Shown here: positions 32,807 through 52,288 of the stretch, in pieces
How the letters are laid out: every line of letters starts with the position of its first letter
Numbering within the stretch: the stretch's first letter is position 1
Assembly (NCBI GenBank): GCA_013374855.1
Contig: CP055308.1
Span: 16,358 to 80,357 of the forward strand
Direction: 5' to 3'
Length of the DNA stretch: 64,000 nucleotides
From: Candidatus Woesebacteria bacterium
GTDB taxonomy: Bacteria > Patescibacteriota > Microgenomatia > UBA8517
The notes under the pieces: generated by a model
Told to the model about the DNA's origin: nothing
Seen by the model: only the letters and a program-made list of their open reading frames with translations
The model's database searches: none
Made by a program: the position numbers and the translations under genes

Positions 32807-33712
32807 TTAAGAAGAAATCAATTTTCTAAAACGCCAATACTCCATAAAACGCAAACCCACATAACGCCCCACTAAAATATCGATTATCATTACCAAAAAC
32901 AGAAAAACCTCAGGATTTAAAAGCGCATATCGACGGAGTGGCTCAAGCGTTAAAAGAAAATAAGAAAAAAGAGCAAGAACTAAAGTTTCAGCTGTTAAGT
33001 TTAATGCTGTTCTTACGCTTTTCCCAAGCTGAACTCGAGAAAAATCCTCTGCCAATAAAACAAGAATAAGAACAGGAAAAATAGAAACATTAGTTAACCC
33101 AATTTCTTTCAATAAAGGTGCAGAAAACAAAAGACCCAAGACCCCAATTACCACAAACCACAAAAGCATTGCCATTCTTGGAAGATATTGAAGCCTAAGT
33201 TTTAGTTTTCTTGTAATCATTCTAAATAAAGTGGAAAAAAAGATGATAACGGTAAAAATTAAAACTCCAAGCAGAGGCCCAATGGCAATAAAAACAACCG
33301 AGAGAGCAGCCGGCATAAAAATTCCAAAACCGCGTAGGCCGATCAAATGACGGGAGGCGGCAATTAAGGCGGCAACGGCCGTTAAAAGCAAAAGTAAAAC
33401 TATCGTGTTTGCCGGCACTCCTGCGGCAACCGATTTTCTGATTGCATATTTCATAAAATTAAACGGCCAGACAGCGCCTATTCCTTGTTCTGCCAAAAGT
33501 TTTTCTAGAGGACCTATTGCTTCTTCCGTTTTTTGAGTTATGTCAACCTTGGGCAACGGTGTAGTGATTTCCTCAACTTTTGACGATTCCATTTGCTTAT
33601 CTATGGGAGTTGGCGGTGGTGAAGAAACCACAGGAAAAACCGCAAAAACAGATTTTGCACAAAAGAAGACAAAAACAAAAGCTGCCAACAAAGAAAGCTG
33701 CAGAAATTTCAT
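32807..33712 (-). CDS. polytopic membrane protein (signal peptide, about 65-aa extracytoplasmic segment, about 7 TM helices)
   Basis: Hydropathy read from the sequence; first gene of the ATP-grasp operon. Confidence 0.6.
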   Translation of the reverse strand: MKFLQLSLLAAFVFVFFCAKSVFAVFPVVSSPPPTPIDKQMESSKVEEITTPLPKVDITQKTEEAIGPLEKLLAEQGIGAVWPFNFMKYAIRKSVAAGVPANTIVLLLLLTAVAALIAASRHLIGLRGFGIFMPAALSVVFIAIGPLLGVLIFTVIIFFSTLFRMITRKLKLRLQYLPRMAMLLWFVVIGVLGLLFSAPLLKEIGLTNVSIFPVLILVLLAEDFSRVQLGKSVRTALNLTAETLVLALFSYFLLTLEPLRRYALLNPEVFLFLVMIIDILVGRYVGLRFMEYWRFRKLISS

Positions 33713-33729
33713 AATCTATATTATACCGT

Positions 33730-34330
33730 AAGTACCCAAGAGTGAACAACAACGTTGACGCGAACAAACAACTTCCAACAACCAACTAACAACAAGATTA
33801 GAACATAAAACAAAGAACAACGCTCCCCGCGAACAATTAACAATTAACATTTAACAATTAACGGATAGAGCACATAACCTTGAACAAATCTCCTAACAAG
33901 GTCTGGCCTTTAATAAAGGCCAGACCTTTATAGAATCAAATTACAAATTACAAATTACAAAGCAAAAATAACAAATAACAATTAACAATTAACTATTGAC
34001 CATTAACCATTGACCCTTGAAATAGTAGAACAAAGAACATAGAACAAAGAACAAAGTGAATTAAGATTCTAGAATAAATTCATAAATCCTAATTCATAAA
34101 TCATAAATCAAATCTTCAACTTCTACTCTCCCGCTCTTCTATACAACATAGAACAAAGAACATAGAACAAAGTTAGAATATAGAATGTAGATTATAGAAT
34201 GTAGAAACAACTCAAGAGTCAGATATACATAATACCAGATACCAGATACAAATACTTTCTTATACTCTTATACTCTTATACTCTTCAACTCTTCCACCCT
34301 TTTAATGACTTTTGAATTAACTTCCACTTT
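33730..34330. repeat. mosaic short-tandem-repeat element, copy A (inverted relative to copy B at 48890-49440)
   Basis: 600 bp non-coding stretch built from 2-4x tandem 7-14-mers (TTAACAA, AAATTAC, ATAGAACAAAGAAC, CATAAAT, TAGAATGTAGA, ATACCAG, TTATACTC, CATTGACC) plus the palindrome GGTCTGGCCTTTAATAAAGGCCAGACC. About 330 bp align at about 90% with the reverse complement of 49130-49440. Confidence 0.8.
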
Positions 34331-34404
34331 TCCATTCTCTTACTCTCATCAAAATTAAATCCTATAGTTGCAAAACGGAGGAGAATAAGATAAAATATAC
34401 ACAA

Positions 34405-35781
34405 ATGAGAGATACTGACAATAGAATTTCCAGACGGGAGTTTATGAAGCTTTCAGGTGTAGCAATTACTGGGGCAATACCTCATCAAATCATAGAAAGA
34501 GTAAGTCTCCTTTTATCTAAAGAAAGAATAACAACAATAAACACTTTAACAGCTCATCAAGCTGCATTTTATGCTCAAACAATATTTAAAGGCCAACCTT
34601 ACGAACTTGGAGTAAGAGATTGCGCGATGTTTGCCGCCCAATTTGCCTCATACTATGGCATACCCCTTGTAAGAACCAACACCACCAATATCAATGAATA
34701 TTCCCCTCAGCCTCCAAAAGATCCAATGCCAGACGCATCAACAATATTCCAAGTAAAATGGTTTGAAACAGCAGCAACTCTCCTACCGAAAGAACTTATT
34801 CAAACCTACTCCTACAATCAAATCGCGGATATAAACTCTTGGCATAAGATAAATCCCGGCTCATTACTCTACCTGAGAAACAAAGGGCGCACTCATCATG
34901 GATATAATACATATTTCCATACTCTTGCTTACATAGGAATTAACAAACAACAACCGATTTTTGCTGAATATAATGTAGGTATGAAAAAAGGCCCAGAAGT
35001 TGGAATACCGCTAGACAAGATTTTATCCAGATATCAAAACTTACCTAACGATCAGATAACAGGCACTATAATAAATGTCCCCGGATTATCAACTGAAATA
35101 TGGCAAAGACAAACAGGAAAAGTTTCCCCTAATTACGATTCTAGAATTTTAAGAGAGGCAGGTCAACAAATTCTAACTATAAACTTAATTGATGGCACCG
35201 CAACCTACTGGCAGGTAGATTCAAAAGGAAAATTCATTCAAAAACCGTTTGAAAACAAAGAAATGGAGGTTAGAACAGAAAGAATCGGCACCCAAATTCC
35301 ATCAGATCCGTATACCATACTCACCTTCTACAAGTTTACCCAGCCCCACTATTTTGTTTCCCTCGGTATGCCCACAACAGAAGAGGGATGTTTCTACGGA
35401 GCACCTCTTTGCGTTCCACGTTTTCTCACTATTCCTCCAATGGTAGCTGGTGTTAACCTCACAAGTGAGGGGGCTTCTCTGGAAATACTATACTCACCTT
35501 CAACAGGGAAAATAGAAAAAGGAACCCCACAACACGTTTATATTCTTCAGCCCAGTAATGCCTTTTTGCCAAAAAACACTGCTATCACATTCCCACCCCA
35601 AACCTTTGAAGCTATCCGGAAAACGATAGATAAAGGAATAAAAACAATTTTGATTTTATCATATCCACAATTTCCACAAGACATTCTCTTACAGAAAGGC
35701 AATTCTCTCCTTGGAAAAGATCCTTTACTTGATTTTCTTAACACCCACAAGATGCCTCCACAAGTTCTCACAGGCCGATAA
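34405..35781 (+). CDS. Tat-signal secreted protein with N-terminal papain/C39-like domain
   Basis: 458 aa; SRREFMKLSGVAITGA twin-arginine signal; GVRDCAMFAAQFASYYGI (C39-like Cys helix) and HHGYNTYFHTLAYIG (His). Confidence 0.55.
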   Translation: MRDTDNRISRREFMKLSGVAITGAIPHQIIERVSLLLSKERITTINTLTAHQAAFYAQTIFKGQPYELGVRDCAMFAAQFASYYGIPLVRTNTTNINEYSPQPPKDPMPDASTIFQVKWFETAATLLPKELIQTYSYNQIADINSWHKINPGSLLYLRNKGRTHHGYNTYFHTLAYIGINKQQPIFAEYNVGMKKGPEVGIPLDKILSRYQNLPNDQITGTIINVPGLSTEIWQRQTGKVSPNYDSRILREAGQQILTINLIDGTATYWQVDSKGKFIQKPFENKEMEVRTERIGTQIPSDPYTILTFYKFTQPHYFVSLGMPTTEEGCFYGAPLCVPRFLTIPPMVAGVNLTSEGASLEILYSPSTGKIEKGTPQHVYILQPSNAFLPKNTAITFPPQTFEAIRKTIDKGIKTILILSYPQFPQDILLQKGNSLLGKDPLLDFLNTHKMPPQVLTGR

Positions 35782-35875
35782 ATCCCCTCCCTCACCTTAA
35801 AAACAAAATCTACCTTCCCAGATCAAAATAACTCCAAGAAGAAAAAACCACTAGACATTTGAGTGAGCAGAAAAA

Positions 35876-36730
35876 TTGTTTATTTCGGAGAAGAAGAGTA
35901 GAACAAAAAACTCTCCAAGGTCTCACAATAACCTGGCTAAACCAAAAAGTATTATATATTCAAGAACAAACCTAAAAATCAAAAGGAGAATTGTTCCAAG
36001 GATGAGCAAATACAAACTCAAGCCTCAACTTGATGAGTTTTGTTTGCAAAATAATCTCCAAATGGTATCAACTGCAACCATTGGGAGAATTATTAAAAGA
36101 AATAATCTGTTTTATTACAGATCAGGCAAAGTATATCACAATCCTGCATCTAAATGGGCTCAGAATGAGACCAAAAGAAAGAAAAAAGCAAGAGTCAGGT
36201 ATGCGCCAAAACCTTCAAATTTAGGTTACATTCAAATGGATACGGTTGAAAAAATAATTGATGGGCAAAGATGGTATATGTACCAGGCAATTGATGTTCA
36301 AGGGAAATCTGCCCTTTCCTTGACATACAGAAGACTTAATTCAAAAAACACAGTAGATTTCTTTAAAAAGTTCCAGTTTATCTTGCCTTACAAGGTAACC
36401 ACAGTCCAAACAGACAATGGACTTGAGTTTTTGGGGCATTTTGATGCCTACCTCCAAGCTCAGTGTGTCCCACATGTCTTTACTTATCCCAGATGCCCGA
36501 AGATTAATGGGGTCGTTGAGCGATTCAACAAAACACTAAATGAAGATTTTATTGAACCAAACCTCAATCTCATATATGACCAAAAACAATACAACAAAAA
36601 CTTAGCTGAATATATGATATATTACAACTGCATTAGACCACACGAATCATTAAATAATATGACACCGATTAACTACCTTATTCAGAAAGGAGGAATGTCG
36701 AAAATGTTGCGATCCTGTATATTGAATTGA
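35876..36730 (+). CDS. DDE-type integrase/transposase (rve catalytic core)
   Basis: 284 aa; …YIQMDTVEKI…WYMYQAIDVQGKSAL…TTVQTDNGLEF…NGVVERFNKTLNEDF… is the D,D(35)E rve pattern. The N-terminal HTH looks truncated; the true start may be MSKYKL at about 36002. No flanking terminal inverted repeats identified. Confidence 0.75.
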   Translation: MFISEKKSRTKNSPRSHNNLAKPKSIIYSRTNLKIKRRIVPRMSKYKLKPQLDEFCLQNNLQMVSTATIGRIIKRNNLFYYRSGKVYHNPASKWAQNETKRKKKARVRYAPKPSNLGYIQMDTVEKIIDGQRWYMYQAIDVQGKSALSLTYRRLNSKNTVDFFKKFQFILPYKVTTVQTDNGLEFLGHFDAYLQAQCVPHVFTYPRCPKINGVVERFNKTLNEDFIEPNLNLIYDQKQYNKNLAEYMIYYNCIRPHESLNNMTPINYLIQKGGMSKMLRSCILN

Positions 36731-36785
36731 AAAACCAATACCTAAGTGATATAATTCATCAGACAAACAAGACTGCCCTCCCAAA

Positions 36786-37493
36786 ATGTCAAAAGAGAGT
36801 TTATCAAGAAGAGAATTTTTAAAGTTGGGTGGGGTGATTCTTGTTTCCCGTCTTGTTCCAGACTGCCTTAGGGAGGTTAAACCATTCCCTTTCATTAACC
36901 AAAAAAACCAGTCTCAATGTGCCATTGCTTCTATGACTATGTTAATTGCCAGTTTCAAACAAAGAGAGAACAAACCTGATGTCAATGTCGAAAATATTTA
37001 CGACCAAGTCCTCCAACAAGCAATCAAGACAACCAAAAGAGATCTAACCAAACCATCCTCAAATGGGGTATATGGAAACGAAATAATTCAAATTCTTAAT
37101 TCTATAGGGCAACAGCAGGGATGGATAGCAAAAGACAACAGGAGAAAAGCTTCTCCTGAAGTAGTTGAGCAACAACTATTAGCATACGGACCTGCCATTG
37201 TAGATATAAATGTAGATTACAAACCAATAAAAAAGGACTATTCTTTGAATCATTGGGTTGTAGTAACCAATCTAGAAAGAAAGGGGGGTACTCGTGTAAT
37301 AATAGCCGACCCTTTCAGAACACAATCAAAGGTTCCGTTTCTTCCATTTTCTCCAACCTTGCCTGAAGGTGTTCAATTCTACGACGGCGACAACAGACTG
37401 ATAATCGCGGAGTGGACAACCTTTACCTCATCAGCTGGAGGCGTTTTTATACAACTGCAAAGAACATACAAACGGACAACTCCTTCCATTTAA
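36786..37493 (+). CDS. Tat-signal C39-like (papain-fold) peptidase-domain protein
   Basis: 235 aa; SRREFLKLGGVILVS signal; Q…C…H…D pattern (QSQCAIASMTMLIASF, HWVVVTNL, IIADP) typical of the C39-like family. Confidence 0.6.
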   Translation: MSKESLSRREFLKLGGVILVSRLVPDCLREVKPFPFINQKNQSQCAIASMTMLIASFKQRENKPDVNVENIYDQVLQQAIKTTKRDLTKPSSNGVYGNEIIQILNSIGQQQGWIAKDNRRKASPEVVEQQLLAYGPAIVDINVDYKPIKKDYSLNHWVVVTNLERKGGTRVIIADPFRTQSKVPFLPFSPTLPEGVQFYDGDNRLIIAEWTTFTSSAGGVFIQLQRTYKRTTPSI

Positions 37494-37520
37494 CATACTC
37501 AGGATATTCCCCAGACCCCC

Positions 37521-40292
37521 CTAGGGGTTTATTTCCCTCCAATTGAAGCTTCTCTGATAGAAGTAATAAGGCATAGAAAGGATAAGATTCGGTTTGTATT
37601 CAAATAATTCAGCAGGTGTGGATTGAGGATTCTTATCTAGAGTTAGAGATCTTTGAAGCTGTACTGTGTTGGCTACAACAGTCCCATTTACAATAAGCTG
37701 ACTGTCTTGTCTTGACCCTTCTGTCCCTGTAGAAAAAGAACCATCGGCAAGGAATATTCCATCAATTCTTGTTACTGAAGGATCAATTTTAATATCACCC
37801 GTTGCCACTATCATCAGAAAACCATTACCATTAGTAGCTAATGTAATGTCTCCTTCCACAGTTACGTCTCCATTAACAAAAAGTACAAGTTTTTGATTAA
37901 AGCCTGAAGAGGCACTAATCTTAAGATCTCCATTCACTTTAGTCCAATAGTAGTTGTCTTTTAGTATGCTGTTATTCCCTGTTGTAAAATTAGAAAGAGA
38001 TAATGGACTAACAGGACTATTAATAACACCTTGGGAGTTCCCCCACCCATTCCTAACTTCAGAAGGAACTTTGCCTTCAAAGTAGGAATAGTTATACAAG
38101 TTGTAGACAGAGGCAATATTTGTCTTTACTGCCCCCCATCCACTTTCTGAAACAGACCCCTCACCTATCCTAATGTTTCCATTATAGAAGGCAATACCAG
38201 AAGTATTACTACCTTTAGTCAGAAGATAACTACCTTCAGGAATATATGAGGCTATATCATTTAATGCAATAACATCAGCATCTTTAGCCTGCCAGAACTT
38301 ACCAGGCCTTACAATTACAGAAACAGAACAAGGAACATCGGCACTACCACATGCTTTACCAGAGCCATCAGCAGCAGGAGAACTAATAGTCAGAGTTGCA
38401 GTTTTCAAAACATCAACTTCTCCTGCTTCCAAATTAGCTCTTACTTCCCCATTGTCTCCCACACTTGATGAAATAACTCTAATTATGCTATTATCAGACG
38501 ATGTGACAGTGACAGAAGAATTGTTATTGTCTGACAGGGTAGCCAATAAGACATTATCCCTTCGTTCACCAGAAACAAAGGGAACAACACTTTGTAGAGT
38601 GCACTTGCAAGGAACCTCAATCGACCCGGGGCCACATGAGAAAAATCTCGCTAACCCGTTTCCGTGCACATACTCATTAACAGGACCATAAATCCCAGTT
38701 GCAGGATTATAACTTCTCCAAAGTAATCTCTGTCCCTTAGTCACAAAATCCAAAACCGGTTCATCCTCTGCCCTGAAAATTCTGTCAAAATCAATGGAAA
38801 ACTGAACAGGATAAATTCCTCCCTCATAATATCTTGGTCCTGTCCATATCTCATCAACCTTGGCAGAAGTAGAAGTTCCTCTTGGTATTCCTTCTACATC
38901 AATTTCAGCAATTATAACTGTCTTCTCACCTTTATCCCACCTTGGCTCCATCGTAATTGTGAAATTCCTGCAAACAGAGCCGTCCAACATTACCACCAAT
39001 TCTGTTTTTTGCTGCTCTGTAGACTGCCTGCTCAAACTCCCTAACAATTTCCCAACACTCCCCGGATCGTTACAAAAAACTTGAATCTTTTCAGGAGGAA
39101 AATGAAAAAGACCGCCAACTTTACCCGCAAAAAAGTAAAAGCGCAAAGTCTGCAAATAATAATAACCACCCATGTTAATATTAATTTTTGCCACTACATT
39201 TTGAAAAAAAGTCCATGCAGGATCAGAAAAATAACCACTGCCGTGATTGTCATCAGTCATCTCGCCACCACTATCAGTATTATTAAGTGGCTGGTTATCA
39301 ACCCAAGAGTAAGTGTAGTCTAAGTCTTGCTGAGCTTGATTTTTTATGTTTTCTGCAACATACGGCTTAGTAAACTCCCGCCATGTGTAAAGAGAAAACA
39401 ACTCTTCCAAACTTTTACTTGGATTGTAAATAGAAGAATCATAAACATTAGAGCGTATTGGGTCAGAAACACTGCTTCCACTTCCTCTTGCTCCAATCCA
39501 GCCATAAACTGACCCACCACATTTCAAACAAAGTTCCTCTAAATAAGAAGGAAGTATCCCAGCATCTCGCTCTCCTGGGAAGCAGGCAGATTGAACACTG
39601 GTATATACACAAGGGAACTGGCTTTGATTTGGAGTAACATTAGGGTCCCCACCTATAGGCGGAGGAAAAGATGGAAAAAGAGTTGAAACAGGGGAAGACT
39701 GATTAATGCTAATTGCAAAATCCCACCATCCCCGTGGTATGTACATATAGGAATAAGTTCTGTGGTAATCATTACAACACCTACCTGGAAAACCAATAGA
39801 GCCATACAGATACTGATCAGGAAAATCTAAAAATTTGTTAGAAAAACCAATAAGACCTATATTCAAAAGACTTGTCGAAGCCCAAGCGGTAATAGCACCA
39901 ACAGATTGGCCTAATAAGTTTGTTTCAGGAGAAAAAATAGGACGATTGCTACCTACATAAGAAGATGTAATCTTCGTAAAAACACCTCCACCTAATTTTA
40001 AATAATCTGGCACATAACCACTAACCTCACTACTAGTAATCATATCCCTAACCTCTTGGCATGTCTTATTGGGTAAGCCACAAGGAGGAGGGCTTGGCGG
40101 CAATTCCAATGTTCCATAACAAGGAAGTGACGTACCTGTATAGCTAGTACAGCCCTGAAAAACACCTCCATCAGGCAGGCTATACCACCAATAATAAGCC
40201 GCTTTTGCAAATCTCACAAAGAAGAATGCAAAAAAAACAAAGACCAAAAAAGCAACTAGACTATTTCTAAAAAGACCCCTTTTCATAGACAA
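37521..40292 (-). CDS. large Cys-rich secreted protein (923 aa) with Big_2-like Ig domain and a C-terminal domain shared with the 1042-aa paralog
   Basis: N-terminal signal/TM (LVAFLVFVFFAFFFV), many Cys pairs, Big_2-like segment (VTVTSSDNSIIRVISSSVGDNGEVRANLEAG…). The C-terminal about 330 aa are 75-100% identical to those of the 41181-44309 product. Confidence 0.7.
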   Translation of the reverse strand: MSMKRGLFRNSLVAFLVFVFFAFFFVRFAKAAYYWWYSLPDGGVFQGCTSYTGTSLPCYGTLELPPSPPPCGLPNKTCQEVRDMITSSEVSGYVPDYLKLGGGVFTKITSSYVGSNRPIFSPETNLLGQSVGAITAWASTSLLNIGLIGFSNKFLDFPDQYLYGSIGFPGRCCNDYHRTYSYMYIPRGWWDFAISINQSSPVSTLFPSFPPPIGGDPNVTPNQSQFPCVYTSVQSACFPGERDAGILPSYLEELCLKCGGSVYGWIGARGSGSSVSDPIRSNVYDSSIYNPSKSLEELFSLYTWREFTKPYVAENIKNQAQQDLDYTYSWVDNQPLNNTDSGGEMTDDNHGSGYFSDPAWTFFQNVVAKININMGGYYYLQTLRFYFFAGKVGGLFHFPPEKIQVFCNDPGSVGKLLGSLSRQSTEQQKTELVVMLDGSVCRNFTITMEPRWDKGEKTVIIAEIDVEGIPRGTSTSAKVDEIWTGPRYYEGGIYPVQFSIDFDRIFRAEDEPVLDFVTKGQRLLWRSYNPATGIYGPVNEYVHGNGLARFFSCGPGSIEVPCKCTLQSVVPFVSGERRDNVLLATLSDNNNSSVTVTSSDNSIIRVISSSVGDNGEVRANLEAGEVDVLKTATLTISSPAADGSGKACGSADVPCSVSVIVRPGKFWQAKDADVIALNDIASYIPEGSYLLTKGSNTSGIAFYNGNIRIGEGSVSESGWGAVKTNIASVYNLYNYSYFEGKVPSEVRNGWGNSQGVINSPVSPLSLSNFTTGNNSILKDNYYWTKVNGDLKISASSGFNQKLVLFVNGDVTVEGDITLATNGNGFLMIVATGDIKIDPSVTRIDGIFLADGSFSTGTEGSRQDSQLIVNGTVVANTVQLQRSLTLDKNPQSTPAELFEYKPNLILSMPYYFYQRSFNWREINP
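37922..38339. repeat. 417-bp segment 100% identical to 41590-42005 (direct repeat inside the two giant paralogs)
   Basis: Base-by-base comparison of the two stretches showed no mismatch; flanks drop to about 75%. Confidence 0.9.
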
Positions 40293-40298
40293 AATAAA

Positions 40299-40997
40299 CT
40301 AAAACCTAAAATTAGAAAAAAGAACAACTGACGACAAATTATATCCTCCATACCCACTATCACATAAAGCATTGGTTTTATTTTCATCTGATTCAAAGGA
40401 AACAAAAACTAAACTATTAGGTTTAAGTTTGCAAGGGTTATAGTTATCTTCTGAATAAAGAGGCTTATTATCGCTTTCTCTTATATATTTACCCAGATCA
40501 AAACCAAAAAACGGCTCACCGCCATACGAATAAAAACCAGATCTACCAAAAACAAAATCAAACCTAATTTTGCATCTTTCATTAAATTTAACAACAACTG
40601 GGCAATAATTTACAGCAGAAGAAGATAACAAATTCATATAATCAGACATAACTTTCTCATCTACCACAATGGTACCATATCCGCCGTAAATATATTCCTC
40701 TCCAAATTCATCTACCTTTTTATCTAAAAGAAACAGCCCCCTAGGATAGGGAGAGTATAAAACAGAAGCTTCTTCAGGAAGAACAACTTTTAATGAAGGA
40801 AGGAAAATTCTGTTATAGAAAGAAGAAAATGGTCCGGCGGTTAATTTGGAAACAAAAGTTAAACTATTGGCATTTAAATTAAGATTCCGAACACTCCAAG
40901 AAAACATAAAGCATAAAGTATAAAGAATTACGAATAGGAAGACGAAGAGAAAAATAAAATATCTTACTTTTAGCTTAAAAGGCAGTTTTAATTTCAT
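40299..40997 (-). CDS. hypothetical membrane-anchored protein (232 aa) preceding the 923-aa giant gene
   Basis: N-terminal TM (FIFLFVFLFVILYTLCFMF); weakly similar to the 222-aa protein at 44370-45038. Confidence 0.55.
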   Translation of the reverse strand: MKLKLPFKLKVRYFIFLFVFLFVILYTLCFMFSWSVRNLNLNANSLTFVSKLTAGPFSSFYNRIFLPSLKVVLPEEASVLYSPYPRGLFLLDKKVDEFGEEYIYGGYGTIVVDEKVMSDYMNLLSSSAVNYCPVVVKFNERCKIRFDFVFGRSGFYSYGGEPFFGFDLGKYIRESDNKPLYSEDNYNPCKLKPNSLVFVSFESDENKTNALCDSGYGGYNLSSVVLFSNFRF

Positions 40998-41180
40998 TAT
41001 TCAATTTGTCTAATTAAAAGATATAGCAATAAAACATCGTTGTCAACACAAATTGTAAAGCAGGAAAAAAGATAGTAAATACAATTAAAATTATAAAATT
41101 AAAGCAAGTACACTATTTACAAGAATTTATAATCCAATTACAAAGATCTCCTCCCCCTTTGTGAAAGACTATTGTATTTA

Positions 41181-44100
41181 TTACGGATTTACCTCCCTCC
41201 AGTTTAAGTTTCTTTGATGGAAGTAGTAAGGAATAGAAAAGAGAAGGTTGGGTTTGTACTCAAATAGTTCAGCAGGTGTGGTTTGAGCTTGGCTTACAGG
41301 AAGGGATCTCCTAAGGATAACATTACTGGCAATAACTGTACCATTTACCTTAAGTTGGCTGTCTTGCCTTGATCCTCTTGTTCCTGTAGAAAAAGAACTA
41401 TCAGAAACAAATATTCCATCAATTCTTGTTACTGCAGGGTCAATTTCAATATCACCTGTTGCTATAACCATAAGGAAACCATTATTACCAACATCAGCAT
41501 TTCTTAATGTAATATCCCCTTTTATAGTCACTTTTCCATTAACAAAAAGCATAAGTTTTTTATCAAAGTTTGATGAAGAAGAAATTTGAAGATCTCCATT
41601 CACTTTAGTCCAATAGTAGTTGTCTTTTAGTATGCTGTTATTCCCTGTTGTAAAATTAGAAAGAGATAATGGACTAACAGGACTATTAATAACACCTTGG
41701 GAGTTCCCCCACCCATTCCTAACTTCAGAAGGAACTTTGCCTTCAAAGTAGGAATAGTTATACAAGTTGTAGACAGAGGCAATATTTGTCTTTACTGCCC
41801 CCCATCCACTTTCTGAAACAGACCCCTCACCTATCCTAATGTTTCCATTATAGAAGGCAATACCAGAAGTATTACTACCTTTAGTCAGAAGATAACTACC
41901 TTCAGGAATATATGAGGCTATATCATTTAATGCAATAACATCAGCATCTTTAGCCTGCCAGAACTTACCAGGCCTTACAATTACAGAAACAGAACAAGGA
42001 ACATCTGTGGTGCCACAGGCTAATTCCGACTCGTCAGAAGAGTTTGCGCTAATATTTAGTGTAACAGTCTTTACTTCATCCACTTGCCCTGCAGTTGCGT
42101 TAACCTTCACATTACCTGCATCATCAACACTAGTACTGTTTATTGACAAAACAGATGTATCAGAAGAAGAAACAGATACAGAAGAACGATCATAATTCCC
42201 AAGAGTCACCAAAGTCACGTCCTTCGTTTCTCCAGATACAAAAGGAGGAATAGATGGCTTGATAGTGCATTGGCAAGGCGTACTAGCCGGCTGACAGGGA
42301 CTAAGTCTTGCGCCTAAAGGATTTTGATTACCATCAGCAATGTTAGGATCCTCTTCATAAGGGTAAGCTTGACCACAAGAACTAGGGTCGCTACTAGTAC
42401 ACCTTCTCCACAAAAACTGAGGACCATAAATGCGACTACCATCTAAATTTGCAATTGACATTTGAGTCAAGTACCAGCCAGATTTGAAATACTTAGGACC
42501 AAAAAACACTGTATCAACAGGATTACTCCTATCAACGGCATAACTATCAAAACTAAAGCTATAAGCTCTACTCCAATCTTGCCTTCTAACATTTTCTTCA
42601 AGAACATTGTCCACCCTAACCGCATCCTCTGAAACAATAGGATTATTCTGACCCCAAACCTTAAGTTCTTGAAGATAGGTTGGTGTGTCCACTGTGTCCC
42701 CCGGCTCCGCAATCCCAATATAATACTTAACTCTCAAACTGCTACAATTTCTCCTCAAAGGTACTGATAATCTGTCTTCTGTATAAGATGTCGTATTGTT
42801 CGATGCTTTGAAGAGGACACGAGGATAAACAACTCCAGACCTTTCACCATCACAAAATACCCAAATCTCCTTGGGAACATTTATTACCTGACCGTACTGA
42901 TTCCTGTAAAGAAAATCAAAAGTAAGATAATCCACAAACTTTTCGCTACCAAGATCAATTTCCAAATCAGCATCCGCAACAGCCGTACCTAAATTACTAT
43001 CCTCATTATTATCAGGAAAATGCCTAACAAAGTAAAAATCACCATTTGGATAGGTAACACCAAATGGTGTGCCACTTCTTGTAACTTTATCGTCTCTTAA
43101 CTTAACATTACTTTCACTTTCTATATTATCATCTGTTTTATAACAATCAGCACAATCAGTTGTTGGGCTCACTAACCAACTATAAGTATAATCCAGCTTT
43201 ACAGAAGGAGGTATCTCGGGAGCTTCTATACTTTCATCAGGAGGAATATAAGGAGATGGTAAAAACGGATCAGCTTGTGTTCCTGAACCACCACCATTTG
43301 ATATCCAAGTGTAAATTTTGCCTCCACAATTTGGCTTACAACCAAAACTAGGTGGAGGTGTTAAAGTCTTGTACTCAGTACCATAACATATATATTCTTT
43401 TTCGTCACCACTACCTACTCTCCTAAAATCACAATCACTATAACTATTATAAGAACATGTCAAGTCTACACTATCACCAGAACACTTATATGAACCACGA
43501 CAATGACCACTACTCACCCGCGCAAAAGAATCATTTCGGTTGTTGCCATTACAACTTGAATAAGGCACACCAGGACTACTAAAAGGACAATAATAACAAG
43601 CGCCAGGTTCCAAACCTGTAAGATTAGACCTGTAACCAAAAGAATACCAACCATCACTAGGTATATAAATGTAGCCATACTCCCTTAATTGTTGCGTACA
43701 TTTGTTATTAAAAACAGAAAACATTTTTGAAGTTCCAGATAAGAATGCATCGACAAAGCCAACAGTATTTAATGAAATAGGTTCTTCCACCGCTCGACTT
43801 TTTTCAACTGAATCATCATCTAGCCTCGTTTCAGGTAAATAATAATCAACTGTAGAAGCAGTGCGTGCAATTGACTTATAGAAAACCTTGCTACTTTGAA
43901 AGGCCTTTTTTAAATCATCCTCGCTGCTACTTCCCTGAAGGCTATCTAATAAACTTTGTAAAGAGCTTTGGCAAGTTGTATTGTAATAGCTACACTGTGG
44001 CGGACTAAAATTACCAGGTTTATCCCCTATTTTTTTTACTACCTTATTTCTACGTGGTGCTTCACCACAATCCCCCCTACAATAACCAGCAAGTATTGGT

Positions 44101-44309
44101 CTGCTACCACAGTTAGTACACCAATTAAAATCATATGTACAACTAGATCTGTAACAATCTTGATCAAGAACTATCTCCCATTGCGCACTCGCATAAAAAT
44201 TTTTAAGAAAAAAAGACAAAGAATAAAAAATAAACAGAAAATAGACTAAAAATACCACTCCCTTAGCTAATTTATCCAATAAATAAGCAAAACTTATCTT
44301 GTTCTTCAT
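41181..44309 (-). CDS. large Cys-rich secreted protein (1042 aa), paralog of the 923-aa protein
   Basis: N-terminal TM/signal, Cys-rich N-terminal half, Big_2-like segment (SVSVSSSDTSVLSINSTSVDDAGNVKVNATAGQVDEVKT), shared C-terminal domain ending …LFEYKPNLLFSIPYYFHQRNLNWREVNP. Confidence 0.7.
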   Translation of the reverse strand: MKNKISFAYLLDKLAKGVVFLVYFLFIFYSLSFFLKNFYASAQWEIVLDQDCYRSSCTYDFNWCTNCGSRPILAGYCRGDCGEAPRRNKVVKKIGDKPGNFSPPQCSYYNTTCQSSLQSLLDSLQGSSSEDDLKKAFQSSKVFYKSIARTASTVDYYLPETRLDDDSVEKSRAVEEPISLNTVGFVDAFLSGTSKMFSVFNNKCTQQLREYGYIYIPSDGWYSFGYRSNLTGLEPGACYYCPFSSPGVPYSSCNGNNRNDSFARVSSGHCRGSYKCSGDSVDLTCSYNSYSDCDFRRVGSGDEKEYICYGTEYKTLTPPPSFGCKPNCGGKIYTWISNGGGSGTQADPFLPSPYIPPDESIEAPEIPPSVKLDYTYSWLVSPTTDCADCYKTDDNIESESNVKLRDDKVTRSGTPFGVTYPNGDFYFVRHFPDNNEDSNLGTAVADADLEIDLGSEKFVDYLTFDFLYRNQYGQVINVPKEIWVFCDGERSGVVYPRVLFKASNNTTSYTEDRLSVPLRRNCSSLRVKYYIGIAEPGDTVDTPTYLQELKVWGQNNPIVSEDAVRVDNVLEENVRRQDWSRAYSFSFDSYAVDRSNPVDTVFFGPKYFKSGWYLTQMSIANLDGSRIYGPQFLWRRCTSSDPSSCGQAYPYEEDPNIADGNQNPLGARLSPCQPASTPCQCTIKPSIPPFVSGETKDVTLVTLGNYDRSSVSVSSSDTSVLSINSTSVDDAGNVKVNATAGQVDEVKTVTLNISANSSDESELACGTTDVPCSVSVIVRPGKFWQAKDADVIALNDIASYIPEGSYLLTKGSNTSGIAFYNGNIRIGEGSVSESGWGAVKTNIASVYNLYNYSYFEGKVPSEVRNGWGNSQGVINSPVSPLSLSNFTTGNNSILKDNYYWTKVNGDLQISSSSNFDKKLMLFVNGKVTIKGDITLRNADVGNNGFLMVIATGDIEIDPAVTRIDGIFVSDSSFSTGTRGSRQDSQLKVNGTVIASNVILRRSLPVSQAQTTPAELFEYKPNLLFSIPYYFHQRNLNWREVNP
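41590..42005. repeat. 417-bp segment 100% identical to 37922-38339
   Basis: See the paired feature at 37922-38339. Confidence 0.9.
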
Positions 44310-44369
44310 TTTCTAAATTCAAATAAACCCACGCTTATGAAAGTCTATTTTTCTCATAAATTACACATA

Positions 44370-45038
44370 CTAATGGTAAAGAATAGAATCAATCAAGTCA
44401 ATCCTTAAAACTCTACCACTATCATCTAAGAAATACCTAATAAAATCACCTTCTGAAATATCAGAAAAATTAAATTCAAATGAAACAAAAAGAGGCTTTC
44501 CTTTAGCAAAATGCCTTCCCACCTCTAAAAACTGGTCTTCTTTAAAAATCCTACTAGGCAACAAAAAAATATTCCCTTTTGGGTAATAGAAGCCAAAAGT
44601 TATATTATCCAAATTTGTATTTTCAAGAACAAAATTATTTTCCCTATTCAATAACCTCCCTCTTACCCCCAAGGTCATTTTAATAATTGGGTCATAAGCA
44701 CCACTTCTTATATCAGTTACGCCATCAGGAATAGTTTCTTCAAACTTCAAGTAATTTATATAACCATAACCCACACTAACTGTAGATGACAAAGAATTAT
44801 CATAATAACTATACTCATAAGCAGAAAGAGGAAAGCGATAGGTTGGAACAAATACAAGATGTCTAGCCAATTCAAGATAAAAATTGTCTAACCCCAACCT
44901 CCACTTCCCAGGGATAGGCAAAAAGGCTGTTAATTCGAAAATAAACAAAAATAAAGCAAAAAATACAACTAAAAGTAAAAGATTCCTAAAAAAATAATTA
45001 AAACTTAACTTTTGCTTCCAATCTACATTCACTAACAT
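44370..45038 (-). CDS. hypothetical membrane-anchored protein (222 aa) preceding the 1042-aa giant gene
   Basis: N-terminal TM (LLLLVVFFALFLFIFELTAFL); no recognisable domain. Confidence 0.55.
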   Translation of the reverse strand: MLVNVDWKQKLSFNYFFRNLLLLVVFFALFLFIFELTAFLPIPGKWRLGLDNFYLELARHLVFVPTYRFPLSAYEYSYYDNSLSSTVSVGYGYINYLKFEETIPDGVTDIRSGAYDPIIKMTLGVRGRLLNRENNFVLENTNLDNITFGFYYPKGNIFLLPSRIFKEDQFLEVGRHFAKGKPLFVSFEFNFSDISEGDFIRYFLDDSGRVLRIDLIDSILYH

Positions 45039-45044
45039 AATGCA

Positions 45045-45908
45045 CTAATAGCTAGCCGATAAAACAATATCATATTGAAAATCCGGATTATTAATTACTT
45101 CATTGATATCAAAACTACTCAAAAACTTAACAAATACTAGTTTGTCCCTATAATAATTTTCCAAAGAAGATACAGACACGGGCACACTTAGATTACAATT
45201 AGGATTCATAAAGCTATCAAGACCATCTAAGTTTACACAGGAATAATCATAAATAATAATATTCCTAAGTGATCTACAATAATTATAACCTACCTTTCCA
45301 TTCAAGATGTATGAATATGAAATTCCTGGAATTTCATTATATAACTCCGGTAATCCTAAATCACCACTATTATTAAGACTAGGCAAGATGGAAGAAGAAC
45401 TAATGTCATACCTAAAAGAATAAGTCTTACCATCTTTAGAAAGTAATTCCATAACAACATACTGCTTGTCAAAACCATCTTCCTTCACATTGAATTCTCT
45501 TCCACCCTTATACTTACCAATAAAGCCATAAGTAAAATTTCCTGCATAGTTTTTACCCCTTATTAAATAAGGGTGAGATGGATAAGGGCAAAAGAAATCT
45601 CTACTTAAATCGAATTTGTTCGATGATACAAAACCAGTTAAAAAAGTATAGGCAAAACTCATATATTTGTTTTGAATTAAATAACTAAAAAAGCCTATCT
45701 TCTTAATATCTTTTAGCATATAGGTCCTTGATATTAATAACCAGCTAATAAAACACAAAATAACAGAAAATAAAGCATAAATAAAAAAAATTAGAATAGC
45801 CCTAAACAAAAAGAAGCTTACCCAATAAATAAACTTATTATTATCGAAAGACAAGGATTTAAATTCAAAAGAAAAAGCATTCCCACTTTTCGCTTCGCTT
45901 TTAGGCAT
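45045..45908 (-). CDS. hypothetical membrane protein (287 aa), first gene of the giant-protein operon
   Basis: Two N-terminal TM helices; rest unassigned. Confidence 0.5.
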   Translation of the reverse strand: MPKSEAKSGNAFSFEFKSLSFDNNKFIYWVSFFLFRAILIFFIYALFSVILCFISWLLISRTYMLKDIKKIGFFSYLIQNKYMSFAYTFLTGFVSSNKFDLSRDFFCPYPSHPYLIRGKNYAGNFTYGFIGKYKGGREFNVKEDGFDKQYVVMELLSKDGKTYSFRYDISSSSILPSLNNSGDLGLPELYNEIPGISYSYILNGKVGYNYCRSLRNIIIYDYSCVNLDGLDSFMNPNCNLSVPVSVSSLENYYRDKLVFVKFLSSFDINEVINNPDFQYDIVLSASY

Positions 45909-46068
45909 TAATTCAATTTAGACAAACTAAAAACATTTGTCAAGAACCAAGAAATATTCTTTATTAGACTTCCAATCTCCTAAAAAATTCACCTGGTCAA
46001 AAAAATTTATTTCCCAACACAAAAATCAAATTTTTAGATAGAAAGAGTATTTATCCTCCCACGCAATA

Positions 46069-47358
46069 TTATGCCACTCTCTCTTTCAAAGCCTTGTAGT
46101 ACTTATGAAGGTAATCATATGCTAATTCCCAATGATGCTCTCCCATTCCTGCTAAAGCCTTGTTTCTTTCCATCTCAGCCATCACACGAAGATGAGCCGC
46201 TTTTTGAAACTGGAAAGAAGAGATACGATACTCTTCTGCCAACAAATTTTTAACCGTATCTTCCACCTCAACAGCCTTCACCGGGTCGGGGGTGCCATTT
46301 ATCTTTTGCCATTTATTAACCTGAAGCGAAGCGACAATATTGGGCTCAAAAGCAAGCTTTAAGTTAGAAGCCAAAAGGCAATAAAATTTTTCAAGCGAAA
46401 CTCTCGCCTCTTCCCACTTATGTTTATCGCCACTTACTAAGGCTTCTATAAAATGCCTCCCTGCCTGAACAGCAAGACTTTTTGATATACCATACTGCTC
46501 TTTAAGATAACTGATAACAAAATCGCGAAACCTTACTCCTTGTGGCACTTTGGAAAGCCTCCACCAAGAAAGCTCAAGTTTGGCAACCAACTCTGGTTTA
46601 AAGGTAAAATGCCTTTCAGCGTCATTTCCACCAAACCTCCTTCTGCGGCGAGAATAGTCAAGAATTGCTTCTTTTAGCTTTTCGGGGGTAAAGTCAGGAA
46701 GATGATCTTCTTCAAAATAATATTCCGCATAAACCATCTGCCAAGGGAGATATCCTGAAGTTCTCTGTTCTCCCGATGTTCTGATAAAAAGGTCCGGGTA
46801 GGGATAAGGCTGTCCCTTTGTATCCAAGTAAGATGCAAACAAGTTTTCATCTATTTTTTCAGGAGAAACTCCGTCTTTTACTATTGACTTCACTGCCCTT
46901 AATATCTCATCTCTGCCACCATAATCAAGAGCCAAATTAAGAATATTTTTATCAAAATGAGCAGTTTCTTTTTCTACTCTAGCCAACAATTCAGCAACAT
47001 CTTTTGGAAATCTGTCCTTGCGACCAAGATGAACAAGGCGAACTTTATCCCTTTTAGCTTCTTTCAAAAACTCAACTAATCCCTTTCGCAAAAGATCCAA
47101 AATAGCATCTATTTCCTCCTTCGGACGAGACCAATTTTCAGTTGAAAAAGCCCAAATGGTAAATGTGTGAACTCCCATTTGTCGTGCGGCTTTGGCAACT
47201 TTCTTAATTGCCTCATACCCTGCCCTGTGGCCTTCCCAAGGGAGAAGTCCGCGGCTTCGCGCCCAGCGGCGGTTGCCGTCTAATATCATTGCAATATGAT
47301 CCGGAACTTTTGTCCCTTTGGGAAGTTCTAAATTTTTATCGCTTTTCATTAAATTCAT
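46069..47358 (-). CDS. uppS: undecaprenyl-diphosphate synthase (cis-prenyltransferase) with about 190-aa C-terminal extension of unknown function, paralog 1
   Basis: UppS core HIAMILDGNRRWA…FTIWAFSTENWSRP…RTSGEQRTSGYLPWQ; the residues after …RRRRRFGG have no counterpart in canonical UppS. Confidence 0.8.
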   Translation of the reverse strand: MNLMKSDKNLELPKGTKVPDHIAMILDGNRRWARSRGLLPWEGHRAGYEAIKKVAKAARQMGVHTFTIWAFSTENWSRPKEEIDAILDLLRKGLVEFLKEAKRDKVRLVHLGRKDRFPKDVAELLARVEKETAHFDKNILNLALDYGGRDEILRAVKSIVKDGVSPEKIDENLFASYLDTKGQPYPYPDLFIRTSGEQRTSGYLPWQMVYAEYYFEEDHLPDFTPEKLKEAILDYSRRRRRFGGNDAERHFTFKPELVAKLELSWWRLSKVPQGVRFRDFVISYLKEQYGISKSLAVQAGRHFIEALVSGDKHKWEEARVSLEKFYCLLASNLKLAFEPNIVASLQVNKWQKINGTPDPVKAVEVEDTVKNLLAEEYRISSFQFQKAAHLRVMAEMERNKALAGMGEHHWELAYDYLHKYYKALKERVA

Positions 47359-47413
47359 AAAAGGCTATCCCAAAATTATATCAGACCAAAACAAAAATAA
47401 AAATAGAATATAC

Positions 47414-47438
47414 CCTTTAAAGGCCTGGCCTTTAAAGG
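47414..47438. promoter_or_regulatory. 25-bp palindrome CCTTTAAAGGCC-T-GGCCTTTAAAGG between uppS1 (5') and the 370-aa gene (3')
   Basis: Read directly; related to the GGCCTTTAA(TA)AAGGCC palindromes inside repeat copies A (33900-33926) and B (49284-49315). Confidence 0.5.
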
Positions 47439-47510
47439 TTTAGTCCAATGTCAAGCTATCTGGCACTAGCAAAACAACAACTTTAAACAACAAAATATTT
47501 TTTCCCTGAA

Positions 47511-48623
47511 TTACCCCTGCATTTTCTGTTTGTCGCCCGGAGAAGGAATATGGGGAATTAAATTTTCGGAGAAATAACTTAAAGATTCATTCCATTTCTG
47601 ACTCCAGCTATTCCTATCTTCACCATCCAATAAAGGAGCAACCTCTTCCACAAAAGAAGTTAAGTTTAGGAAAAATGCCCCCAATTCTGGCAAGTTCATA
47701 ATTCTTGTTCTATCAATTCCTGAAGACAGCTCTCTGGCAAAATTATCTACATCAGATTTCATAAACATCTCAATAACTTGACGATAGGTCATTTTTGCTC
47801 TTCTACATAAGTCTTCAAAAATAAATCTCCCAGCGCTACCGGCAGAAGACGGAAAAACAATAGAATCTACATCACGAATTTCGTTATCAAGCACCCACTC
47901 TGTAAAAGTAGAATTAATTATTCTATTCATTCCCCCAAAACTACTGTCATTATCTCGATCTAGGGTATAGACACCAAAACCGTATGCAAACAAAACTTCC
48001 GGCCTGTACCCAAAAAGTTTTTCTAAAATTTCATTTTGAAAAAGATGGTTTTCCTGTTCTCCTTTTGAAATTTTAACCTCTCCCGGCAGAGAAAAAGATA
48101 AACTAGCGGCATCTCGAAGAGTAATATGTTCTCCACAAATATAATATTTCATTCCATACCCTCCAGTGGACAATTCATTAAAAGACATTATTGAAACAGG
48201 ATCCTTCCAACCCTGTTCTTTTAAAAGATCGTAAATATCCCGATGATTTGCCGGCAAATTATCGGGATTAGATAAAAGTTCCACTCCCAACGACAGGCCT
48301 TTTTCTTTATAGAACAGAAGCTTATCTTTATTATTTTCCCCCAAAAGACGGTACATTTCATTATTAACCATACCTTCTCTTTTTAAGACCTCAGGCAGAT
48401 AAACAAATATACCCATATAGGCAGGGTCATTGTTTTTGTCTTCTATCTTACTTTGAAAAAGGCGAAAATCGGTTTCAAGAAGCAAATTATCATGTTGTCC
48501 CTCTCTCGCTTGGAATAATTTAGACAATCCGAATGCCGCTGCTGCTCCTGCCGCACCTCCATAAGCAATTAATTTTAGCGCTTCACGCCTGCTAATTTCA
48601 GTATTGCTCTCAGTATTACTCAT
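47511..48623 (-). CDS. Tat-signal secreted hypothetical protein (370 aa)
   Basis: SRREALKLIAYGGAAGAAAAFG twin-arginine signal; rest unassigned. Confidence 0.5.
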   Translation of the reverse strand: MSNTESNTEISRREALKLIAYGGAAGAAAAFGLSKLFQAREGQHDNLLLETDFRLFQSKIEDKNNDPAYMGIFVYLPEVLKREGMVNNEMYRLLGENNKDKLLFYKEKGLSLGVELLSNPDNLPANHRDIYDLLKEQGWKDPVSIMSFNELSTGGYGMKYYICGEHITLRDAASLSFSLPGEVKISKGEQENHLFQNEILEKLFGYRPEVLFAYGFGVYTLDRDNDSSFGGMNRIINSTFTEWVLDNEIRDVDSIVFPSSAGSAGRFIFEDLCRRAKMTYRQVIEMFMKSDVDNFARELSSGIDRTRIMNLPELGAFFLNLTSFVEEVAPLLDGEDRNSWSQKWNESLSYFSENLIPHIPSPGDKQKMQG

Positions 48624-48855
48624 ATAATCTCTTTTTAAAAATTCTTTTTAAGCCACGAGTCGACCCTAGAAAAACCACTTTTGCTCCATCTTTTCCGGCA
48701 TCCTTAAAGAGTATAACCTCCCCTAGAAGGTGCTCACTATCTGGTCTATTTCTAATAACTACAAATTCTTCCCCCTTAAAAAAGACCCTATCACCATTCG
48801 CTATTGGGTCATCTAGATCATCTAATCTTGGATGACTTTTATTTTCTCTTTCCAT
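48616..48855 (-). CDS. hypothetical small protein (79 aa)
   Basis: ORF overlapping the start of the 370-aa gene by 8 nt. Confidence 0.35.
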   Translation of the reverse strand: MERENKSHPRLDDLDDPIANGDRVFFKGEEFVVIRNRPDSEHLLGEVILFKDAGKDGAKVVFLGSTRGLKRIFKKRLYE

Positions 48856-48889
48856 AATCCAGAATAAGAAAAAGCTAATATAGATATTA

Positions 48890-49440
48890 TAGGATAAAAA
48901 GAAGGATTGTCAATACCGGAAAATGAGGCTGAGCTAGGTTGGGACAGGTTGGGAGGTTGGAACAGCGTCGGACACTGCCATATAAGGGCAGGAGAGTAGA
49001 AGAGTGGAAGTTATTAGTTATTTCTGCTTGCCCTTCCGTAGCCTTGGCGAAGGAGGGTGATTTGTAATTTGGAATTTGTGTATCGTTTGTAATTTGTAAT
49101 TTGATTGGTTCTTTGAATTTGTGATTTGGAATTTTTCTTCTTTGTTCTATGTTGTATAGAAGAGCGGGAGAGTAGAAGTTAATTCAAATGGTCAAGGGTC
49201 AATGGTCAATGGTTAATGGTCAATAGTTAATTGTTAATTGTTATTTGTTATTTTTGCTTTGTAATTTGTAATTTGATTCTATAAAGGTCTCGCCTTTATT
49301 AAAGGCCAGACCTTATTAGGAGATCTGTTCAAGGTTGCGTGTTCTATCCGTTAATTGTTAAATGTTAATAGTTAATTGTTCGCGGGGAGCGTTGTTGTTA
49401 GTTGGCAGTTGTTAGTTGGCAGTTTGCAGTAAGCGCGCCT
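48890..49440. repeat. mosaic short-tandem-repeat element, copy B (inverted relative to A)
   Basis: The reverse complement of 49130-49440 aligns with 33790-34190 (…aacgctccccgcgaacaattaac…ggtctggcctttaataaaggc…aaattacaaattacaa…cattgaccattaacc…cttctactctcccgctcttctatacaacatagaacaaagaa…). Confidence 0.8.
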
Positions 49441-51879: not shown

Positions 51880-51889
51880 TTAAAGTATT

Positions 51890-52150: not shown

Positions 52151-52288
52151 CCTTTTTCTTCTTTTCTTCAAGGATTCTTGAAATTTCCCTTTTCTGCTTC
52201 TGTTTCTAAGGTGTACAAGACTACTCGCATTTTTTTAATTTTCAATTTTATCTTCCTCATCACAAAGGATAAAACCAAACTACAACTA

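Follow-up and report, generated by a model that had tools for sequence, protein, structure and literature searches.

Our analysis indicates that two inverted repeats in a 64,000-nucleotide stretch of a Candidatus Woesebacteria genome (contig CP055308.1, positions 16,358 to 80,357; hereafter the window) are probably copies of a dispersed intergenic mosaic, placed at either edge of a surface-protein locus that is old and hypervariable, and not the ends of a mobile or invertible island. We call these repeats the left (L) and right (R) mosaics. Each appears to be built from a palindrome resembling repetitive extragenic palindromes (REPs) and related to the hairpins of a Y1/HUH transposase of the REP-associated tyrosine transposase (RAYT) kind, surrounded by arrays of 7-nt and some 8-nt units. 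L and R would occupy the two outermost spacers of the locus between UppS and the 7TM/ATP-grasp operon, and would have neither delivered nor delimited the 15 kb between them. The source organism is a member of the Patescibacteria (Microgenomates/Woesebacteria-like) with a genome of ~0.8 Mb, and the named homologs of its 7TM protein and of the Y1 protein come from Patescibacteria, Microgenomates or Woesebacteria.

L and R share an inverted, collinear repeat

The inverted match between L and R is real and far beyond chance. Their 212-nt cores align collinearly in inverted orientation at 90-92% identity without gaps (BLASTN E ~1e-82 to 1e-85), and a 43-nt block containing the motif AACTTCTACTCTCCCGCTCT is 100% identical in the two copies (coordinates in Table 1). 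This self-comparison bore out the inverted repeat proposed in the first-pass annotation of this DNA, but not the copy size of about 0.5 kb given there, as the homologous spans reach only ~352 nt in L and ~266 nt in R. The arrays change by whole units between the copies: gapped alignment gave 263 matches and 12 mismatches (~96%) with two indels, each of exactly one heptamer (CAAATTA extra in L, CCATTGA extra in R), and a 97-nt array stretch in L (34021-34117) stands against 11 nt in R. The longest near-identical tracts measure 77 nt (99%) and 43 nt (100%), and the outer parts (33760-33795 and 49392-49427) have only a 36-nt array in common, at 78%.

A third period-7 spacer (T), upstream of the polyprenyl synthase gene, had been described as a further copy at 51890-52150. 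It shares the period-7 signature with L and R, but only array pieces of 30-44 nt at 72-85% identity, and holds no collinear copy; its promoter-proximal array is conserved in a contig of the closest relative (L029). L, R and T are all intergenic, and their autocorrelation at lags of 7, 14 and 21 nt is 0.43-0.48, 0.39-0.45 and 0.34-0.37, compared with 0.28-0.32 expected. No such signal was found in six other long intergenic regions of the window. Tandem Repeats Finder (TRF) resolved the mosaics into successive arrays of different 7-nt units plus one 8-nt unit. In L the heptamers follow in the order AACAATT, CAAATTA, GACCATT, AGAACAA, ATAAATC and TAGAATA, with one 8-nt array of TCTTATAC. By both TRF and autocorrelation, the spacers thus contain tandem 7-nt units of several types side by side, as do the short tandemly repeated repetitive (STRR) sequences and heptameric simple sequence repeats (SSRs) of bacteria. 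Of the 8-nt-array palindromes described below, the window has only the CT-rich half-arrays, at 34258-34300 and in the 43-nt blocks.

The mosaic palindrome resembles hairpins of a Y1 transposase gene

Each core contains a 41-nt palindrome, CTAACAAGG TCTGG CCTTTAATAAAGG CCAGA CCTTTATAG, that folds better than expected (z = -7.6 in L and -5.3 in R) and can be read as two hairpin units with a common central CCTTTAATAAAGG, the doublet organization of REP doublets forming hairpins (REPINs). Its likely counterpart lies in relatives of the window. In L029 and in sister genomes (L031-L036), a 226-aa Y1_Tnp gene sits at a syntenic position between the polyprenyl synthase and UppS genes. The encoded protein shows NHFHF as its HUH motif and RYIHRNP as its tyrosine motif, and its best NCBIfam match is the REP-associated tyrosine transposase (43 bits against a cutoff of 80). 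A search for this Y1 family returned 7810 matches at E <= 1e-5, and those with a source name are Patescibacteria/Woesebacteria. The hairpin CCTTTAAAGG-NCAGN-CCTTTAAAGG stands on both sides of the gene, as inverted copies in L031-type genomes and as direct copies in L029.

Comparison of the 41-nt palindrome with the Y1 hairpin gave a local score of 17, which none of 1000 dinucleotide shuffles reached (8.2 +/- 1.1), and the only high-scoring tiles of the window are the L core, the R core and one canonical 25-nt copy, CCTTTAAAGGCCAGGCCTTTAAAGG. At the level of sequence, these data show a relationship between the mosaic palindrome and the Y1 hairpin, and the palindrome may derive from the ends of a Y1 element. 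The window thus has one canonical and two derived hairpin-type copies; the two 41-nt palindromes and the 25-nt hairpin are short imperfect palindromes in extragenic DNA, as REPs are. The palindrome GGTCTGGCCTTTAATAAAGGC had no match in a genome contig collection or a viral contig collection, and a 20-nt motif of the 43-nt block had none in the viral collection.

The canonical hairpin directly upstream of UppS1 follows a ~36-nt relic of the 3' end of a Y1 (RAYT-like) gene, which makes UppS1 the positional ortholog of the UppS gene of relatives. A segment of 3.3 kb (~47477-50770), comprising UppS2, the R mosaic, p80 and p370, has taken the place of the left hairpin and of almost the whole Y1 gene. 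UppS1 and UppS2 are 88.7% identical in amino acids and 82% in nucleotides (46070-47404 and 49440-50769), and UppS2 is closer to the orthologs than UppS1 is. Because the duplication covers the gene only and UppS2 is the closer copy, the replacement probably arose by recombination with DNA of a related lineage, not by tandem duplication in place. A duplication of UppS that carried the repeat with it was considered and rejected, since the homology extends only from the stop codon to ~45 nt upstream of the start.

Two further hairpin-like sequences turned out not to be insertions. The Y1 gene itself contains a hairpin copy, in that the same 25 nt as in the flanking hairpins (L029 1442-1466; L031 9783-9807) encode a motif, FKGxxFKG, that is invariant in distant members of the family. 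We rejected an in-frame insertion because the motif is conserved family-wide. In L031, positions 2303-2327 of a TP_methylase gene match the Y1-upstream hairpin at 24 of 25 nt, where the window (58166-58190) has an equally long, otherwise diverged patch. This same-length substitution rules out an insertion and looks like a short templated conversion.

Scanning metagenomes with the 20-nt motif of the 43-nt block, we found related palindromes at three distinct low-GC loci that look like those of the candidate phyla radiation (CPR), a putative assignment. They are 75-98 nt long, consist of AGAGnnnn arrays, a loop and CTCTnnnn arrays, and have folding z-scores of -4.2 to -6.1. Two lie in frame within polA and the gene for a CCA-adding enzyme. 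Both of these insertions use the same reading frame and, in alignments with solved homologs, coincide exactly with 21-27 extra residues. The third lies in an hrcA leader. High-GC matches to the motif (L023, L024 and L026) fall inside coding DNA and were set aside as chance.

The locus between the repeats is old and variable

We compared the context of the locus in eight relatives, oriented with 7TM on the + strand. The flanks are syntenic, with polyprenyl synthase and UppS on one side and the 7TM/ATP-grasp operon on the other. The content between UppS and 7TM ranges from 0.2 to ~9 kb in the relatives, against ~16 kb in the window. It turns over fast, and the block had fairly been called accessory; the presence/absence comparison likewise agrees with a variable block, down to the 208 nt found in L015. 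No relative locus examined has p458, the transposase, the C39 gene, p80/p370 and a second UppS gene as a set. A 54-aa Tat-signal (twin-arginine translocation) remnant in L012 sits at the position of p458. A search for relatives of UppS2 in genome contigs returned only distant UppS proteins of Bacilli and Muribaculaceae (35-39% identity), which were of no use for synteny.

Five relatives (L010, L012, L018, L037 and L039; 67-84% 7TM identity) carry genes of the p923/p1042 family at this locus in the same orientation. In four of the five such a gene abuts 7TM, and in L010 it lies upstream of UppS. Judged from these gene contexts, the clade has long had a p923-family gene that lies upstream of the 7TM/ATP-grasp operon and points the same way. 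Period-7 arrays are absent from that border in L012, L037 and L039 by scan, and from the short spacer of L018 by inspection. These observations speak against the proposal of the first-pass annotation that the repeats mark the ends of an invertible or mobilizable island: p923-family genes hold the same place and orientation in relatives that have no repeats, the content differs gene by gene, the score of the IS481-like transposase is below its cutoff and no terminal repeats accompany the gene, a target-site duplication is lacking, and a mosaic piece lies elsewhere in the relative L014. A block that is syntenic and universal in relatives, with no repeats at its borders, had been named there as evidence against an island. 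The p923 family comes close to this, being resident in relatives without border repeats, but the content of the block as a whole is not universally present. We therefore recommend against annotating the repeats as island ends or an inversion switch, and would describe the 15 kb as an anciently variable surface-protein locus.

Heptamer arrays recur across the clade. In L010, a tRNA-Leu(CAA) gene and arrays of that genome's own units AGATTTA, AAATCCT and TTAGAAA precede 7TM (9408-9493 and 9575-9825), and heptamer arrays also lie between ribosomal protein genes in L010 and L012. Separately, L012 contains an internal duplication at 2469-9429 (a 312/551-aa pair, a 406/204/665-aa set and a repeated AACACC-type coding array), which points to an independent expansion of the same locus.

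Mosaic sequence is dispersed and interrupts assemblies

The closest relative, a metagenome-assembled genome (MAG; GCA_020722445.1), has a 7TM gene 89% identical to that of the window in nucleotides. Its contig L014 runs for 134 nt downstream of the last ATP-grasp gene and there breaks off, within sequence that matches window positions 34026-34198 at 84-91% identity and has the same modules in a different order; the window itself lacks such sequence there. A mosaic piece at a different locus makes the repeat a dispersed family, and the alignment shows modules reshuffled between relatives. Unitigs from short reads of the source sample break off within the repeat (L001 at 33952, L030 at 34131), L014 itself ends in mosaic, and L029, from the same MAG, ends exactly at the UppS stop codon, where the window mosaic begins. 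Such ends are the behaviour expected of multi-copy DNA. The repeats break short-read assemblies and MAG contigs at this locus in all four of these cases, which is relevant to rebuilding CPR surface-protein loci.

A model for the mosaics, and its alternatives

In the model that we favour, the arrays would grow and shrink by replication slippage (slipped-strand mispairing), the palindrome may have originated or spread with the help of a Y1 enzyme, and the near-identity of L and R (~96%, against 82% for the UppS genes) would be the result of a recent copying event or of gene conversion. What makes conversion plausible at this locus is a 300-nt tract at the 3' ends of p923 and p1042 (37839-38138 and 41505-41804) with 93% identity, in proteins that are ~41% identical overall; this tract suggests a recent gene conversion in the conserved C-terminal domain. 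The mosaics themselves would probably have no dedicated function.

Several observations weigh against this model. The Y1 gene was not found in the 64-kb window, and the 120 best Y1 homologs all lie on contigs other than the source contig, so that the trans-acting enzyme may be missing. The window, from a genome of ~802 kb, has two good mosaic copies only. For the empty relative, L015, the evidence is one short metagenome contig. Finally, the same polarity of the copies toward a downstream Tat-signal gene, and their conservation above that of the UppS duplicates, would also fit a shared regulatory role.

Such a role would make L and R a cis-regulatory module, a ~250-nt unit (a protein-binding array or a structured leader) common to the p458 and p80-p370 operons and kept by selection, which we consider unlikely. 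L is G-poor on the + strand and R on the - strand, which gives both the same polarity toward their downstream genes, and the distance from the end of the copy to the downstream start codon is 245 nt for p458 and 283 nt for p80. The ~96% identity exceeds that of the coding duplicates, and the arrays adjoin core promoters, among them the promoters of the 7TM and polyprenyl synthase genes. However, array modules also occur downstream of the operon in L014, unit numbers differ between the copies, orthologous spacers of relatives lack these sequences, and p458 and p370 are unrelated proteins. The heptamer arrays lie upstream of the predicted -35 elements, not between promoter elements, and outside open reading frames (ORFs), which is not the layout of a phase-variable locus. 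A search of Rfam assigned no family to the repeats, finding only tRNAs at the gathering threshold and one chance-level match (E = 0.21). The related idea that p458 and p370 are paralogs, with the repeat as the leader of a duplicated gene, was rejected because their similarity is limited to the Tat signal.

Alternatively, L and R could serve as a homologous-recombination switch, in which a RecA-type crossover between them flips the ~15-kb block, swaps the upstream regions of p458 and p80/p370, and produces two isomers. The near-identical tracts of 77 nt and 43 nt are long enough for homologous recombination, and the p923/p1042 tract indicates that recombination or conversion is active at the locus. 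We nonetheless hold a switch to be improbable. The window is collinear with all relatives examined, in gene order as in orientation, which identifies it as the ancestral isomer. GC skew is negative throughout the block with no sign change, which is weak evidence in the same direction. We found no recombinase or invertase among the Pfam matches of the block and its flanks, nor in the best 25 of 54 Pfam families elsewhere in the window. The unitigs merely end in the repeat and are uninformative on isomers. Moreover, as each copy has its own promoter downstream of it, it is not obvious that a flip would affect expression.

A more ambitious idea, which we regard as a long shot, is that mosaics and hairpins are working parts of a Y1/HUH single-strand DNA system that moves or exchanges hairpin-bounded secreted-protein cassettes, with p80-p370 as cargo between the mosaic palindrome and the canonical hairpin, at the Y1 site of the sister genomes. 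If so, related palindromes would have entered intergenic DNA and also, in frame, essential genes, and a cargo-carrying family resembling REPINs or palindrome-associated transposable elements (PATEs) would be diversifying the cell surface of episymbiotic bacteria.

A composite transposon or island, in which the repeats are the terminal inverted repeats of the DDE transposase or of another enzyme and the whole segment is mobile, is very improbable and already largely refuted. Inverted repeats do lie in the outermost spacers with a DDE transposase gene inside, and one relative (L015) has UppS adjacent to 7TM, but the transposase (138.7 bits against 224) lies 1.7 kb from the nearest repeat without ends of its own. 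No target-site duplication was found, the bases next to the repeats being part of a homology that is inverted and not direct. The ends of the repeats do not form complementary termini, and p923-family genes are ancient residents in relatives without repeats.

Comparison with known repeat systems

REP elements with RAYT genes were reportedly described in Proteobacteria by Nunvar in 2010, and STRR heptanucleotide arrays were reportedly described in heterocystous cyanobacteria by Mazel in 1990. The closest known kinds are, first, the REP/REPIN elements and bacterial interspersed mosaic elements (BIMEs) that accompany RAYT genes in Proteobacteria (Bertels and Rainey 2011, PMC3116915) and, second, the STRR sequences and over-represented heptameric SSRs of bacteria (PMC4692102). 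The window combines features of both in a Patescibacteria genome. As in the first kind, a short extragenic palindrome has a doublet-like 41-nt form (REPIN) and stands in a mosaic with other short motifs (BIME), and a Y1/HUH gene flanked by hairpins (inverted in L031-type genomes) holds a fixed syntenic position in relatives. In contrast, the host is a member of the Patescibacteria with a ~0.8-Mb genome, the 64-kb window shows a handful of hairpin copies where tens to hundreds are typical of REPs, and the bulk of each mosaic consists of tandem heptamer arrays, which REPs and BIMEs lack. The Y1 protein falls below the 80-bit RAYT cutoff, the hairpins of L029 are direct, and the Y1 gene appears to be deleted in the window's genome. 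As in STRR sequences, the heptamers are intergenic and tandem, with several units side by side, vary between close relatives presumably by slippage, and have no known function. Here, however, the phylum is Patescibacteria and not Cyanobacteria, the units are not the canonical STRR units but A/T-rich, G-poor and strand-asymmetric, a REP-like palindrome is linked to them, and a 250-nt composite has been copied as a unit.

Rickettsia palindromic elements (RPEs) and other palindromes resembling MITEs (miniature transposable elements with inverted repeats) insert in frame into genes (review PMC10969869). The related 8-nt-array palindromes in polA and the CCA-adding enzyme gene of other, putatively CPR contigs are alike in this respect, but the window copies are intergenic half-elements (CT-rich arm only) and not palindromic as a whole. 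With shufflons, hin/fim switches and rRNA- or IS-mediated inversions, L and R have in common that inverted repeats of recombinogenic length flank a gene block. Unlike those systems, the window has no site-specific recombinase among the reported Pfam matches, no short crossover sites and no alternative isomer seen, and its block is collinear with relatives.

In our literature search, no paper turned up that reports repeats of the REP/RAYT or STRR type in Patescibacteria. A ~0.8-Mb genome of a group usually called streamlined tolerates spacers of 0.4-0.7 kb made of heptamer arrays around REP-like palindromes, and its sister genomes retain a RAYT-like Y1 transposase at a fixed site.

Genes of the block and its flanks

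Gene calls rest on Pfam and NCBIfam scans, which outside the block and flanks covered the best 25 of 54 Pfam families. They agree with the gene content given earlier for the rve transposase, the Peptidase_C39_2 protein, the two UppS proteins, p923/p1042, p370 and the outer ATP-grasp operon, but not for a papain-like p458, which has only a sub-threshold NlpC/P60 match.

Table 1. Features of the window, related palindromes in metagenome loci, and the locus in relatives.
Feature	Position	Strand	Remarks
7TM_transglut gene	32807..33712	-	first gene of conserved ATP-grasp operon; left conserved flank
Left mosaic L	33713..34404	.	divergent spacer between 7TM gene (-) and p458 (+)
L core of inverted repeat, 212 nt	33809..34020	+	repeat search, BLASTN, gapped alignment
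41-nt palindrome, L copy	33893..33933	.	perfect 14-bp stem
L 43-nt exact block	34118..34160	+	repeat search, BLASTN
p458, Tat-signal protein	34405..35781	+	sub-threshold NlpC/P60 match only, E = 0.096
IS481-like DDE (rve) transposase, 284 aa	35876..36730	+	NCBIfam 138.7 bits against cutoff of 224; N-terminus short
Tat-signal Peptidase_C39_2 protein, 235 aa	36786..37493	+	Pfam
p923, secreted protein	37521..40292	-	conserved ~280-aa C-terminal domain, weakly DUF7305-like
p232, p1042 (p923 paralog), p222, p287	40299..45908	-	membrane or secreted; no family matches
UppS1	46069..47358	-	keeps upstream hairpin and promoter seen in L029 and L031
Canonical 25-nt hairpin	47414..47438	-	identical to hairpin downstream of Y1 gene in sister genomes
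Relic of Y1 (RAYT-like) gene 3' end	47439..47476	-	~36 nt, encodes ...LTLD*; followed by hairpin directly upstream of UppS1
p370 (Tat signal) and overlapping upstream 79-aa ORF p80	47511..48855	-	
Right mosaic R	48856..49438	.	spacer between UppS2 stop and p80/p370
Sigma-70 consensus match 12/12, TTGACA-16-TATAAT	48886..48913	-	upstream of p80/p370, downstream of arrays
R 43-nt exact block	49138..49180	-	repeat search, BLASTN
R core of inverted repeat	49192..49403	-	repeat search, BLASTN, gapped alignment
41-nt palindrome, R copy	49279..49319	.	one stem mismatch
UppS2	49439..50737	-	outside R; polyprenyl synthase gene beyond
Third period-7 spacer T	51880..52288	.	upstream of polyprenyl synthase gene; array types in common with L and R
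Palindrome in L021	2423-2507		in frame in polA, 5'-3' exonuclease domain
Palindrome in L025 (= L028)	639-713		in frame in CCA-adding enzyme gene
Palindrome in L022 (= L027)	410-507		in hrcA leader, after CIRCE-like operator (recognized by eye)
Relative L015			7TM 82% aa; UppS 208 nt from 7TM, nothing between
Relative L010 (AP024680.1, complete)			7TM 74%; p923-family 633-aa gene upstream of UppS; UppS, two small genes, tRNA-Leu, unrelated heptamer arrays, 7TM
Relative L012			7TM 74-84%; UppS, seven genes (two with p923/p1042 C-terminal domain), 54-aa Tat-signal remnant, 7TM
Sister species: L018 (7TM side), L031-L036 (UppS side)			L018 7TM 83%; UppS, unrelated 413- and 260-aa genes; in L018, p923-like gene 285 nt from 7TM
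Relative L037			7TM 70%; ~8 kb, last gene 987-aa p923-family, adjoins 7TM
Relative L039			7TM 67%; 637-aa p923-family gene adjoins 7TM; no UppS within 10 kb

No terminal repeats of the IS481-like transposase were recognizable near its gene, which is unrelated to the 212-nt repeats; a 19-nt pair at 74% identity was considered for this role and treated as chance, one arm lying inside the C39 ORF. An exhaustive search with the ~280-aa C-terminal domain of p923/p1042 found it in 1873 cluster representatives, always C-terminal and in proteins of very different lengths, where a word-indexed search with the p1042 domain had returned one match. The rest of the window is housekeeping, with genes for RRF, S2, topoisomerase I, ArgRS, L11/L1/L10/L12, NusG, MreB and others.

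The predicted consensus promoter at 48886-48913 lies 24 nt upstream of the 79-aa ORF (48616-48855), which overlaps the start of p370 by 8 nt. The 7TM/ATP-grasp operon has a conserved -10 box, (G)GTATAAT, that ends ~5-15 nt before its start codon (window 33713-33730; also in L010, L012, L014, L015 and L016). With the box so near the start, the mRNA is predicted to be leaderless or to have a very short leader; the polyprenyl synthase gene (51879) looks alike.

Beyond the polyprenyl synthase gene, L031 has a 435-aa M16 peptidase gene (7115-8422) between a helix-turn-helix (HTH) gene and the synthase gene. In its place the window (52289-53175) has just two small ORFs, of 153 and 92 aa, together with the third heptamer region, and an M16 paralog lies at 60.3-61.5 kb. 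The window also has a second MreB-like gene at 9613-10611, 48% identical to the MreB gene at 55151-56164.

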